Assembly: GCA_963705105.1 (NCBI GenBank)
Contig: CAVPIW010000014.1
Coordinates: 160,001-224,000, forward strand
Direction: 5' to 3'
From: an uncultured Nitrospiraceae bacterium
GTDB taxonomy: Bacteria; Nitrospirota; Thermodesulfovibrionia; Thermodesulfovibrionales; Dissulfurispiraceae
Length of the DNA stretch: 64,000 nt
Shown: positions 36,301 to 39,300 of the stretch, piece after piece
How positions within the stretch are numbered: position 1 is the stretch's first letter
Layout: every line of letters begins with the position of its first letter
Program-made: the position numbers

Positions 36301-39300
36301 TGGTCCGGCTGTTCACCAGGTTGATGCGCCGCAGGATGTGCGAAATAATGAGCGGCAGGTCCTCCTTCCGCTCCCTCAGGGCGGGAGTACGGATAGGTAT
36401 GACATTGATCCGGTAGTAGAGGTCCTCCCGGAACTGGCCCTTCTCGACCAGCTCATGGAGGTCTTTGTTCGTGGCGGTGACAAGGCGGATGTTAACATGG
36501 ATGGGCCTGTGATCGCCGACTCGCTCGATCTCCCTCTCCTGGATGACCCGTAAAAGCTTGACCTGCATGGGTTGGGACATGTCACCGATTTCATCGAGGA
36601 AGATGCTCCCGTTGTTCGCAGCTTCGAATCGCCCCTCACGGTCCTTGACGGCGCCGGTGAATGCGCCCCTGACGTGTCCGAAGAGCTCGCTCTCGAGGAG
36701 GAATTCATTGAGCGCCGCACAGTTGACCTTGATGTAGGGACCCTTGTTCCGCCGGCTCAGCTTGTGGATCGCGAGTGCCACGAGCTCCTTGCCCGTGCCG
36801 CTCTCGCCGGAGATGATCACCGGGGCTTCACTCCGCGCGGCGTTCTGGATCTGTTCATAGAGGCTCATCATGACGGGGCTCTTCCCGTCAAGCCCCATGA
36901 ATCCCTGTTCGTGCTTGAGCTCGTGCCGCAGTTCCTCGATCTCGAGATCTTTCATGTACAGAGAGGTGACATCAGTCATCGCCTCGACGGCGCCGACGAC
37001 CTCACCGGAAGGGTCTTTCAGGACAATGGCGTTTTTCAGCAGATGGACAACGCGTCCCTCTTTCGACCGGATGTGACATTTCTTTTTCGAGACCGATCCC
37101 AATTCGAAAAGCGGGCATTTCTTGTCCTTGCCCGATTCCCCGTGAAAGACGCAGGTATCGGTATCAAGAATGGTGCAGGGTTTCCCGATGACCTCATCCA
37201 CGCAGTACCCGGTAATCTCCTCGGCGGCCTTGTTGAAGAAGAGGATGGTCCCGTCCTTGTCGACGACCATGATGCCGCTGGTCATCGTCCTGAGGACGCT
37301 CATGAGAAAGCCTGGATCGGAGAAGAATTCTTGCATATATTTGTGTTAAAGACGTTGTTGACTTTGAACAGTATTTAACATTATTATTAACAGATTGGTC
37401 AAGAGGGCGGTAAAATCTATTGCGTTTGAATGGTTTTATTGCTTGCATGAATCCTGCAAATGATGAGAAATCTGAATAGGGTGACCCGCCCTTGGCGGGA
37501 AAAAATATATACATCGTTCGTGCAAGGAGGCAGTATGAAGGGAAAGCACAGAGGGACCTTCCTGGCACTGGCGGTGCTTGCGGCGGCCCTGCTGCTCGTC
37601 TCGACGACGGGATTGGCGCAGCAGAAGCCGAAGATCCTCAAGCCCTGCTCTCAGTGCCACAAGGCGGATGAGAAAGTCCTGCGCGGTCTGCTCGGCAACG
37701 TTTCACAGAAGGCCGAGACATTCTCGATCAACGCAGGCGGCGTCTGGAACGTCAAGTTCGATGACACCACGAAGATCGTCGGGTGGGCGGGGGAGCTCCA
37801 CAAGATCCCCAAGGAGAAGGAGATTGCCGTAACCTACGTTGAGCGTGAAGGCGCCGTTTATGCTTCAGTCGTCTCGGTGAAGCAGCCTGCCAAGATCGCG
37901 CCGGAGAAAATGCTGACCGTCGAGCAGATGGCCGATATCGTCGAGAAGGGCGACGCCGTCATCGTCGACTCGCGCCCCGCTCCCCGGTTTTACGAGGGGG
38001 CGCTCCCCGGCGCCATCAACATCTATGACGCCGAATTCGACAAGCATATCGACAAGCTGCCGCAGGACAAGAACAAGCTCATCGTTTTCTACTGCGCGGG
38101 ACCTACCTGAAGGCTGAGCCCCTCCTCTGCCAGTAAGGCGGAGAAACTCGGCTACACGAACGTCAGGATCTTCCATGACGGCATACCTGCCTGGAAGAAG
38201 TCCGGCAAGCTCACGATCGAGTGCGTCCAGTGTCTCGTCGAGCGCGTGAAGCTCGACATCCCGACGATTATTGTGGACCTGAGGTCCCCGGGCGATGCGA
38301 AGAAGGAGCATATCCCCGGCGCCGTCAGTGTCCCTATGACGGACATCAGCTCGGCCTACGAGCGTTTCCCCAAGGACAAGAGGGCGCCCATCGTCCTCTA
38401 TTCGCACGACACCAGGTCGGCCGTCCAGGCCTTCGAGGTCATCAGCATCTGGGGCGGATTCACGAACATCACCGTCCTGCAGGGCGGGTTCCCCGAGTGG
38501 AAGAAGCTGGGAGGCAAGGTCGCATCGGGAGACCTGCCGACGAAGATCGTCTATGAGCCCAAGCCGAGGCCCGGAGAGATCGGGATAGAAGAGTTCAAGA
38601 AGATCGCCGAGACGAGACCTGCGGACAAATTCATCCTCGACGTGAGAGACTCCGAGGAGGCCGAGGCGGGCATGCTCGTGGGCGCGAAGAACATCCCGAC
38701 CCAGGACATCCCGAAGAAAATAGGCGAGTTCCCCAAGGACAAGGAGATCGTCATCCATTGCACCACGGGGGTGAGGGCCGAGCTTGCCTACCACTCCCTG
38801 AAAGATGCAGGGTACAAGTCCCGGTTTCTAAACGCGATCGTCAAGATCGACCCGGCCGGCAGATACGAGATAACAAAGGAGTAAGACATCAGAAGGGCGA
38901 CCAGCTCGGCCTGGTCGCCCTCACATTCCTCGGCGTCACCCTCTTCTGACCCTCCCCGTTGACCACCATGACATAGATCCCCTTGGCTCCGTCCCTGTCG
39001 GACGTGAAGGCTATAAACCTGCCGTCAGGGGAGAAGGTGGGGTCCTCGTTGTTGCCCCGGTCGGTCAGGCGGGCGACACCGCTTCCGTCGGGTTTCATGA
39101 CGTAAATCTGCTTTCTCCCGCCGATGAGACTCACATAAGCGATGCGGTCGCCTTTCGGGGACCAGACGGGCGACGTGTTATTTGACCCTTCGAAGGTGAG
39201 CCGCTTGATCATCTCGCCGTTCCTGTCGGCGCTGTAAATCTGGGGGCTGCCGGAACGGTTCGAGGCGAAGAGGATCGTCCTGCCGTCGGGTGACACGGCC

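Follow-up and report, generated by a model that had tools for sequence, protein, structure and literature searches.

An exported triple-rhodanese selenoprotein with a probable haem c site: an unstudied variant of the selenium-containing rhodaneses in Nitrospirota

A reading frame of 449 codons in a Dissulfurispiraceae genome carries a TGA at codon 192, inside the active-site loop of a rhodanese domain, and a CxxCH motif close to its predicted signal peptide. Is this one gene for a selenoprotein, does the motif hold a haem, and what would such a protein do in the periplasm? The frame lies in the window, by which we mean the whole 64,000-nucleotide stretch of DNA that was analysed. Coordinates are window positions (Table 1), position 1 being position 160,001 of contig CAVPIW010000014.1 (assembly GCA_963705105.1).

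Gene calling with translation table 11 breaks the frame into two parts, 37460-38110 and 38246-38884. The initial annotation had joined the two resulting genes, g03521 and g03522, into one 449-codon frame with a TGA at codon 192, and translation of 37535-38884 reproduced this, with codon 192 (38108-38110) the only in-frame TGA. The rest of its description was also found in the translation: a signal-like N-terminus, CSQCH at residues 38-42, three PF00581 stretches, and the loops FYCAGPT-U-RLSP in domain 1 and HCTTGVRAE, containing C409, in domain 3. The region is one gene for a 449-residue selenoprotein, predicted from its sequence to be exported. Five RNA contigs of 154-196 bases, from three metatranscriptome libraries in two studies, match both halves of the gene, each differing from it by one or two letters; none of the five spans the UGA with at least 31 letters on either side. 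They give a weak hint of expression, and DNA carry-over is possible.

Table 1. Features of the rhodanese selenoprotein gene and its upstream region, in window coordinates.
Feature	Position	Strand	Details and basis
Divergent PAS / sigma-54 AAA+ / HTH_8 enhancer-binding protein, probable regulator	35957..37336	-	Pfam
Near sigma-54 -24/-12 element (TGG...TTGCA)	37431..37447	+	spacer one base too long, weak; sequence
Ribosome-binding site AAGGAGG	37524..37530	+	sequence; same start Met in homologues
Single CDS	37535..38884	+	449 codons plus stop, TGA192 read as selenocysteine; translation, Pfam, homologue alignment
Signal peptide, residues 1-28	37535..37618	+	predicted cleavage after G-L-A; sequence only; model has helix 7-21 and low pLDDT at residues 1-32
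N-terminal OB-fold domain of the CusF/DUF5666 kind, residues 31-122	37625..37900	+	model, Foldseek, VIA
CxxCH (CSQCH; C38, C41, H42), probable haem c attachment	37646..37660	+	sequence, alignments
Rhodanese domain 1, residues 128-222	37916..38200	+	best Pfam stretch
Active-site loop C187 to U192 (C-x4-U), rhodanese domain 1	38093..38110	+	translation, alignments
UGA selenocysteine codon	38108..38110	+	translation and alignment of relatives
SECIS-type hairpin, apical loop AGUAA	38113..38152	+	RNA fold, covariation
SECIS lower stem	38113-38118 pairs with 38147-38152	+	RNA fold
SECIS upper stem	38125-38131 pairs with 38137-38143	+	RNA fold
Rhodanese domain 2, about residues 246-312, inactive	38270..38470	+	LYSHDT without active-site Cys; profile, alignment
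Rhodanese domain 3, about residues 348-433	38576..38833	+	canonical loop HC409-TTGVRAE; translation, profile, alignment
Catalytic C409 codon, rhodanese domain 3	38759-38761	+	translation

TGA192 is a genuine selenocysteine codon because three things agree on it: an alignment column that alternates between Sec and Cys, a SECIS hairpin specific to the Sec forms, and a complete Sec machinery. The presence of selenium itself is predicted, and the earlier identification of the protein as a selenoprotein stands. In the homologue and species-set alignments C187 is invariant and column 192 is always C or U. Each of the 27 full-length public homologues in the alignment has Cys at this column, as does every non-TGA homologue that retains the loop; across 80 loci of the species set it is TGA in 50 and Cys in 30. 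The SECIS-type hairpin lies 17 nt downstream of the UGA. Its upper helix is paired in 95.2% of cells across 51 sequences, with compensatory change at four of the seven pairs, and at least six of the seven pairs form in 49/50 Sec forms against 6/24 Cys forms. The genome carries tRNA-Sec, SelA, SelB and SelD, all the protein matches being over their cut-offs, and encodes further selenoproteins, among them a true LYCAU rhodanese and a pair of MccSep/ExtKL-family proteins. That the TGA is instead a true stop or a lesion, leaving two genes or a pseudogene, is scarcely credible: gene callers do split the frame, and public sets hold 256-aa C-terminal and about 198-aa N-terminal pieces, but a stop would truncate the first rhodanese domain in mid catalytic loop with the nearest following start codon 45 codons downstream, and the TGA column is shared by dozens of genomes, with Cys in the rest, alongside the conserved hairpin and the Sec machinery.

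Selenocysteine is common in the order, but it is not universal there. Of the 120 other genomes sampled from the order, 42 have a match at E<=1e-20. The 46 match rows outside our own genome comprise 36 with exactly one TGA, one with two, one with a TGA and a TAA, and eight with none; the loop column of the 29 non-own loci fetched is TGA in 28 and Cys in one (L033). Chance falls far short of explaining so consistent a TGA. The statement that every ortholog carries a TGA, and that Sec is kept across the order, was therefore too sweeping. Within the order, L033, L078 and P0025 are Cys forms; a record named as Dissulfurispiraceae (P0016/P0257) and the 27 full-length public homologues have Cys too.

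The PF00581 profile recognises the three rhodanese stretches with 158.4 bits (gathering score 22.2). The homologue alignment shows no variation at C187 of domain 1 or at C409 of domain 3, and domain 2 has no Cys at the corresponding place. The loop continues beyond the Sec as U-R-L-S, the residue at +3 being Ser in 49 of the 57 distinct Sec forms and Thr in the other 8. A fold search with the whole model returned multi-rhodanese proteins only, at low TM-score. The N-terminal domain was modelled with a pLDDT of 94.2 and a pTM of 0.84, and VIA matched it to OB folds (best Z 7.3).

Two cysteines and a histidine are the only invariant columns in 49/49 N-domains, and the motif that they form stands on the first turn of the OB fold. 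Among 81 distinct members of the family the motif is CxxCH in 71 and Cx4CH in 10, with both Cys and the His kept throughout, and the profile search found two PF01578 cytochrome c assembly genes in the genome. A haem c is likely to be bound covalently at CxxCH, judging from the motif. Neither the homologue alignment nor that of the 49 N-domains contains an invariant His, Met or Lys that could be the sixth haem ligand. The protein had been described as a cytochrome, and part of this stands, as there is a CxxCH in a protein predicted to be exported and the genome has haem-attachment genes; however, the domain has neither the fold of a cytochrome c nor a distal ligand that is conserved. The further claim that the protein couples its Cys-Sec pair to the haem was overstated. 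CxxCH is absent in three relatives (L144, L146 and L148) and the whole N-domain in five (L145, L064, L065, L068 and L069), and these retain C-x4-U or C-x4-C. Relatives without the haem motif keep the pair, and the loop chemistry therefore does not need haem.

Is this a new kind of selenoprotein? Rhodanese selenoproteins have already been catalogued, and form 1 of the published table is a PF00581 protein with the motif UxxS, the table making no mention of a haem motif (PMC13188914). The window's protein, a PF00581 protein in which a single Sec is followed by x-x-S (U-R-L-S), shares both features with form 1 when the two are compared by motif alone. The idea that it is missing from the published lists is thus not supported, and form 1 may be a haem-less relative of the CxxCH triple rhodanese. 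The four text files of the supplement to PMC1794560 do not mention a form-1 exemplar. No paper describing a CxxCH-rhodanese selenoprotein was found among open-access papers and preprints; members may be listed in the supplements of the review behind the published table and of older selenoproteome papers.

Two curated models resemble the loop, and our recomputed scores for them are identical to those first reported. No Sec-rhodanese model scores higher on domain 1 than LYCAU (NF041203, CxU), which likewise has a canonical Cys with Sec downstream in the same loop. Its Sec is at +2 in a single domain of about 126 residues, whereas ours is at +5; the score was 85.6 bits against a cut-off of 115, the loop being C-x4-U and not C-x-U, while the genome's true LYCAU member, elsewhere, scores 158.5 bits. 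TsoB (NF045694, UxxxxU) also has a rhodanese loop with a pair of chalcogens separated by four residues, as compared by motif and not by column alignment, and also fuses its rhodanese domain to a module able to supply electrons. However, TsoB combines U-x4-U with a DsbD-like membrane module, and the protein studied here combines C-x4-U with an OB/CxxCH domain. The TsoB model reaches 57.7 bits against a cut-off of 805 and matches the rhodanese part only, the membrane module being absent; a profile search found no TsoB over the cut-off in the genome (best 108 bits).

The best explanation as a whole, to which we give a probability of roughly 0.55, is that this exported Cys187-Sec192 rhodanese with haem c is a periplasmic sulfane-sulfur reductase or transferase. 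C409, C187 or both would form a persulfide by accepting sulfane sulfur from polysulfide or thiosulfate. This persulfide would then be attacked by Sec192, so that sulfide is released or the sulfur is handed on and a Cys-Sec selenenylsulfide remains, and the haem would reset the pair by exchanging electrons with periplasmic cytochromes. The protein would act beside polysulfide- or thiosulfate-reducing systems. Substrate and electron flow, like haem attachment and export, are what we infer from the computed frame, Sec codon, SECIS hairpin, architecture, spread and neighbourhoods. The NADH-dependent persulfide reductase and the CoA-persulfide and CoA-disulfide reductases (3nta, 3ntd, 8a56) share the principle, with a rhodanese Cys presenting a persulfide to a fused redox module, and among proteins of solved structure it is their C-terminal rhodanese domains that domain 3 resembles most in sequence (3nta, E 4.7e-22). 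They differ in being cytoplasmic: these FAD/CoA enzymes have a single rhodanese domain and lack both Sec and a haem motif.

The gene's neighbours in the window are the sigma-54 activator, Tol-Pal genes, MoaC and a radical-SAM gene, with no sulfur gene among them. Neighbourhoods vary from lineage to lineage. All six loci of the Thermodesulfovibrio clade have a 632-aa multihaem cytochrome directly downstream, and five have cytochrome b and Rieske genes. The neighbours in Desulfohalobiaceae are a YedE/YeeE-type transporter, an ExtM-like cytochrome, a Rieske protein and cytochrome b. In Betaproteobacteria, 7 loci have a PhsA-like molybdoenzyme together with its FeS subunit, and 9 have a transporter resembling YeeE/TsuA. 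A TehA-type transporter occurs in some lineages, as does a membrane protein of the YedE type ('selenium metabolism'). What surrounds the gene in other lineages points towards a redox role in the periplasm, acting on sulfane sulfur (or selenium). The sulfur/selenium chemistry originally proposed fits these neighbours; its extension to sulfur disproportionation was conjecture.

By tblastn, 10 of the 11 loci in the window's clade have the same divergent PAS activator upstream of the gene, and the canonical element GGCA[CT]-N5-TTGC[AT] stands at the aligned upstream place in nine of 11 relatives. The genome has rpoN. A search of our own intergenic region with up to two mismatches gave no canonical sigma-54 promoter, the near element there being weak (Table 1), and a match at 37563-37578 was rejected as a promoter since it lies within the CDS. 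The adjoining activator would turn the gene on in the window's clade.

Could the protein carry sulfur without reducing it? As a pure carrier of the Sud or YnjE type it would pass sulfane sulfur to a separate reductase, and the CxxCH group would be structural or sensory and give no electrons to the Cys-Sec pair. Sud of Wolinella is an exported, periplasmic rhodanese sulfur carrier. The three-rhodanese fold matches that of E. coli YnjE, also exported and also triple (Foldseek E 4.1e-13; the global TM-score, 0.24-0.27, is low because the domain arrangement differs), and those of other sulfurtransferases. A place next to PhsA-like molybdoenzymes, as in Betaproteobacteria, is what would be expected of a carrier, and the survival of the Cys/Sec pair in relatives without the haem motif fits as well. 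However, YnjE and Sud lack a second loop chalcogen, Sec and a CxxCH/OB domain. To have another chalcogen five residues past the catalytic Cys, and Sec in its place, is typical of redox-active pairs and not of simple carriers, and both the invariance of CxxCH in the N-domains and the repeated association of the family with electron-transfer modules speak against a mere carrier. A carrier role is unlikely, although it deserves to be kept in mind.

The same neighbourhoods raise the question of whether the true substrate is selenium or tellurium, with the protein taking part in periplasmic selenite or tellurite reduction or traffic, as proposed for the Geobacter ext cluster. Some neighbours, the ExtM-like protein (184.7 bits), Rieske and cytochrome b, resemble proteins of the 'selenite/tellurite reduction operon', and the TehA-type and YedE-type genes would suit such a role. 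The Geobacter extHIJKL cluster includes ExtH (GSU2940), a rhodanese-like lipoprotein of 49 kDa that is not described as a cytochrome in the parts of PMC5877670 and PMC6148476 that deal with it. Compared by description, ExtH is similar in size to our protein and lies near multihaem cytochromes, Rieske and cytochrome b, like the family in Thermodesulfovibrio and Desulfohalobiaceae, but residues 1-37 of our protein contain no Cys and hence no lipobox. Every Ext match is far under its cut-off, and Cys forms of the family adjoin thiosulfate-type genes in some lineages. The enzyme of that cluster, MccSep or ExtKL, is a pentahaem selenoenzyme whose haem, Cys and Sec reduce polysulfide, and selenite more weakly (PMC13510729). 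It may act like the protein proposed here, using periplasmic haem c, Cys and Sec to cleave the polysulfide S-S bond, but it is a multihaem cytochrome without a rhodanese domain and without homology to the triple rhodanese. The genome's own two MccSep-family genes, on another contig, have no rhodanese or ext-like partner adjoining them. We regard selenium or tellurium as quite an unlikely substrate.

The CxxCH could also be something other than a haem site, namely a metal or thiol-disulfide site on a CusF-like periplasmic OB domain that would provide the rhodanese loop with a metal or with a disulfide relay. The best structural match of the modelled N-domain is the copper/silver chaperone CusF (3e6z; E 7.3e-4, TM 0.60/0.68), its profile also recognises DUF5666 tandem-repeat proteins, and TsoB, according to its NCBIfam description, couples a similar rhodanese loop to a DsbD-like thiol-relay module. 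However, the DUF5666 repeats lack CxxCH because the match covers only profile positions 14-93, and an invariant His immediately following the second Cys is what marks a haem c site. C...CH is also retained in the Cx4CH variants, and the genome has the genes for haem attachment. These points make a non-haem site very unlikely.

The protein belongs to a very large family, of which it is a Sec form, while other lineages have Cys at the same column. The family is present in 326 species-level genomes, its Cys side numbers at least 1,584 clusters at 90% identity, and Cys forms predominate in Betaproteobacteria and Desulfuromonadales. A tree of the 81 distinct members (57 Sec, 24 Cys) requires at least six changes between Sec and Cys. 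Searching with part of one Cys homologue (P0002) returned, as family clusters, only those of about 198-aa N-terminal fragments with scores of at most 0.78, which we note as a lead. An NCBIfam profile search found no curated model covering the haem-motif triple rhodanese. Because gene callers and public records split the frame at the UGA and no curated model covers it, the Sec-carrying members are mis-annotated. The protein is thus a variant of the known selenium-containing rhodaneses that is widespread, has gone unstudied and is routinely annotated wrongly.

A probable haem, a Cys-Sec pair and the usual catalytic Cys of a rhodanese, three reactive groups in all, come together in this small exported protein, and its family occurs in anaerobes that reduce or disproportionate sulfur. 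A bolder view of it, tentative and with the odds well against it, is as a prototype for minimal, haem-dependent reduction of sulfane sulfur in the periplasm, in which a single OB-domain haem c would feed electrons to a Cys-Sec selenenylsulfide within the rhodanese loop. The sixth ligand of the haem may then be the Cys or the Sec of that loop, by analogy with the Cys in MccSep. If this were true, it would mean molybdenum-free cleavage of the S-S bond of polysulfide or thiosulfate, and a route for that cleavage in the sulfur-disproportionating and sulfur-reducing Nitrospirota and Thermodesulfobacteriota. With MccSep as a precedent for haem, Cys and Sec together, the protein is a cheap target for studying what happens to sulfane sulfur in the periplasm and what makes selenium the preferred element there, and the repeated Sec/Cys swaps, at least six on the tree of 81 members, make the family a natural series in which to test what selenocysteine buys.

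The gene studied here, read by translation, is a single frame of 449 codons plus a stop, and codon 192 is its sole in-frame TGA. This agrees with the initial annotation in every part: the one frame, the TGA, the CxxCH and the loop motifs. Under translation table 11 the frame is split into ORFs 37460-38110 and 38246-38884, the second of which would start 45 codons past the TGA, midway through a rhodanese domain. AAGGAGG precedes the start at 37535, and the aligned homologues begin at the same start. Pfam found PF00581 three times and no other family, and the NCBIfam scores quoted before were reproduced exactly, every match being below cut-off (NF041203, LYCAU, 85.6 against 115 bits; NF045694, TsoB, 57.7 against 805). 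The analysis shows a selenoprotein, exported as judged by its sequence, that combines an OB/CxxCH domain with three rhodanese domains.

Coordinates of the features discussed (window positions, or genome:contig:positions, where G000 is the genome under study)
Feature	Position	Strand	Remark
Study gene	37535-38884	+	translation
Signal-peptide-like N-terminus	study protein	+	sequence
CSQCH	residues 38-42	+	sequence
Domain 1 loop, FYCAGPT-U-RLSP	U = codon 192, 38108-38110	+	sequence
Last-domain loop, HCTTGVRAE	C409	+	sequence
MoaC gene	33261-33785	+	further upstream
B12-binding radical-SAM gene	33760-35394	+	further upstream
Tol-Pal-like set (TolB, TolA/TonB-C, ExbD/TolR)	38889-42068	-	
Rhodanese frame with TGA (L118)	G000:C12:101671-102042		
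Rhodanese frame with TGA (L120)	G000:C9:237414-237725		
Rhodanese frame with TGA (L007)	G000:C6:833274-833567		
DUF3373 barrel gene with TGA (L140)	G000:C5:625791-627101	-	
Selenocytochromes (L157, L158)	G000:C6:765276-766541; 766951-768114		tandem

Four independent lines identify TGA192 as a selenocysteine codon: the Cys/TGA column, the counts across the order and across species, a SECIS-type hairpin and the cell's Sec machinery. Stop-free full-length public homologues exist, and all 27 aligned have Cys at column 192 (FYCxGxTC); C38, C41, H42, C187, C192 and C409 are invariant among them. Within the order Thermodesulfovibrionales, 42 of 120 other genomes gave a match at E<=1e-20, with exactly one TGA in 36 of the 46 non-own match rows, and the loop column of 29 fetched non-own loci was TGA in 28 and Cys in one. 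A species-level collection held 326 stretches encoding a relative. The best 80, classified by loop column, comprised 50 Sec forms, 24 parsed Cys forms, two further Cys forms (L062, cut by a contig end, and L092, in a frameshifted assembly) and four short forms that lack the N-terminal domain and carry C-x4-C. One relative, L022 (G067:C58), has a second TGA at codon 28 after the Sec codon, at the family's invariant Trp (PE-U-KK for PEWKK); TGG mutated to TGA or an error in assembly is the probable cause, rather than a second Sec.

The hairpin starts 17 nt past the UGA; in the predicted fold 38125-38131 pairs with 38137-38143 around an apical AGUAA loop. Across 51 sequences 95.2% of the cells in this upper helix were paired, compared with 32-50% in slid controls, and four of the seven pairs showed compensatory changes. 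Of the 50 Sec forms, 49 make at least six of the seven pairs at the same positions; only 6 of the 24 Cys forms do so, despite a similar encoded peptide. L081 (from 6274 onward) is a Cys form, yet it retains all seven pairs; the persistence of the full hairpin suggests a recent Sec-to-Cys replacement. The genome encodes tRNA-Sec, SelB, SelA and SelD, the last itself with a TGA, and also a true LYCAU rhodanese selenoprotein.

Sec forms extend beyond one order, to several kinds of Nitrospirota (by record name), Thermodesulfobacteriaceae (a cultured Thermodesulfobacterium among them) and one MAG labelled 'Deltaproteobacteria'. Betaproteobacteria, Burkholderiales and Desulfohalobiaceae are populated by Cys forms, as are, by name, many Desulfuromonadales and Geobacteraceae MAGs; a homologue search started from a Geobacteraceae member gave at least 1,584 clusters with E<=1e-60 out of 8,000 candidates scored. 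A FastTree phylogeny of 57 Sec and 24 Cys forms, 81 distinct members in all, built with the Sec/Cys column masked and midpoint-rooted for drawing only, requires at least six changes of state, with four single Cys tips, L081 being one, nested among Sec forms. The proposal that Sec is kept across the order thus holds largely, but not absolutely, because of these nested tips and one Cys form in a record named Dissulfurispiraceae.

The same genome has three further rhodanese frames with a TGA in the active-site loop (L118, L120, L007): one encodes the lipoprotein-like LYCAU protein (ILYCAU), another a cytoplasmic FYCAU protein scoring under the LYCAU cut-off, and in the third U occupies the canonical catalytic position (TYUASG). 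The genome's single gene for a DUF3373 outer-membrane barrel (427 bits) also contains one in-frame TGA (AKL-U-AGRG), which may mark a further selenoprotein or a lesion; a DUF3373 gene in relatives adjoins a pair formed by a PAS/sigma-54 activator and the rhodanese. Two tandem multihaem selenocytochromes of the MccSep/ExtKL family, which score 568 and 372 bits and have one TGA apiece, have no rhodanese or ext-like gene alongside.

Within the window, the gene is flanked by a divergent PAS/sigma-54 activator and convergent Tol-Pal genes, with the TolB gene ending 4 bases past its stop on the opposite strand. Of the 11 loci in its own clade, 10 share the upstream activator, with a DUF3373 barrel beyond it in five. 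A canonical sigma-54 promoter precedes the gene in nine of 11 clade relatives and was not found in the upstream regions of the window, L038 and L042; the window has a near match, its spacer one base too long, and retains the upstream TTAACA repeats. These repeats, common to 37337-37534 and the regions that align with it in L039-L048, are likely the activator's binding site, and rpoN is present in the genome. Five short metatranscriptome contigs (154-196 bases; three libraries, two studies) map to both gene halves, each differing at one or two letters; none spans the UGA, and they are weak evidence for expression.

Other lineages have other neighbours. In the Thermodesulfovibrio clade a small rhodanese precedes the gene and a 632-aa multihaem cytochrome follows it (the latter in six of six), in a cluster (L074-L080, e.g. 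L075:7354-13762) that also has a TehA-type transporter (three loci) and cytochrome b with Rieske (five) and that recalls the Geobacter ext cluster. Desulfohalobiaceae have a YedE/YeeE-type transporter, an ExtM-like cytochrome, Rieske and cytochrome b, and Betaproteobacteria a PhsA-like molybdoenzyme with its FeS subunit (seven) and a YeeE/TsuA-like transporter (nine). The partners vary by lineage, and all belong to periplasmic electron transfer and sulfur/selenium oxyanion handling.

Domain 1 has a canonical catalytic Cys followed five residues later, at the loop end, by Sec or Cys, domain 2 lacks the Cys, and domain 3 has a standard rhodanese loop. Among solved structures the sequence of domain 3 is nearest to the rhodanese domains of persulfide- and CoA-disulfide-reducing flavoenzymes (3nta, E 4.7e-22; 8a56); the fold of the three domains resembles multi-rhodanese 1yt8, EanB and YnjE, although their arrangement differs. 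In the favoured mechanism a rhodanese Cys would take up sulfane sulfur as a persulfide, Sec192 would resolve it through a selenenylsulfide with C187, and a haem would exchange electrons with periplasmic cytochromes to reset the Cys-Sec pair. There are precedents in TsoB, which has the same x4 spacing and is fused to a thiol-relay module, in the flavoenzyme-rhodanese persulfide reductases, and in MccSep, where a His/Cys-ligated haem and Sec act together to reduce polysulfide (PMC13510729). That the protein is instead a pure sulfur carrier seems unlikely to us. Selenium in place of sulfur as the substrate is more doubtful still.

Modelled alone with 49 sequences, residues 31-122 gave pLDDT 94.2 and pTM 0.84, with the CxxCH on a short helix that leads into a barrel of five or six strands. 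The top Foldseek match was the periplasmic Cu/Ag chaperone CusF (E 7.3e-4, TM 0.60/0.68), and an independent fold search returned only generic OB folds (Z <=7.3, a level common for this method). A profile search matched 222 representative clusters at E<=0.001, and among the best 150 most had the lengths of the rhodanese family or of its UGA-cut fragments. The profile also matched secreted proteins with three to six tandem barrel copies (positions ~14-93) lacking CxxCH; in ten scanned with Pfam, DUF5666 was found in all and CusF_Ec too in eight. Because of these matches and motif-free tandem relatives, the domain is a DUF5666/CusF-like OB barrel with CxxCH added at its N-terminal edge. Its only invariant columns in 49 sequences are C, C and H, and Cx4CH replaces CxxCH in 10 of 81 members with both Cys and the His retained. 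Both Cx3CH and Cx4CH count among the accepted variants of the haem c motif, and two genes for cytochrome c assembly (PF01578) are present in the genome. The earlier assignment of a haem c site is therefore probable, but on an unusual scaffold, an OB fold whose alignment columns hold no conserved sixth ligand; that the motif is instead a metal or thiol-relay site is the least probable of these three alternatives.

Some genomes of the order hold a second paralogue, 33% identical (L141, G006:C1:1931765-1933084; L142, G106:C99), that likewise has a CxxCH, an OB domain and a C-x4-U loop, here SYCRGGT-U-GMSP. The defining features tested for LYCAU and for TsoB are absent from the study protein. A review (PMC13188914, 2026) gives five rhodanese selenoprotein forms, UxxS, UxxG, CxU, UxxG and UxxxxU, and the study loop conforms to UxxS, the bare form 1 motif. 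We found no paper on a CxxCH-rhodanese selenoprotein in the open literature, and subscription papers and supplements may have one. The gene therefore represents a haem-motif/OB-fused subfamily of exported triple-rhodanese selenoproteins. Relatives in the order combine the parts in other ways: C-x4-U with an OB domain that lacks CxxCH (L144), C-x4-U with no N-terminal domain (L145), C-x4-C with no CxxCH (L146, L148), or none of these groups (L147). The core of the family is thus an exported triple rhodanese with a two-chalcogen loop, to which the haem-motif OB domain is a subfamily's addition.
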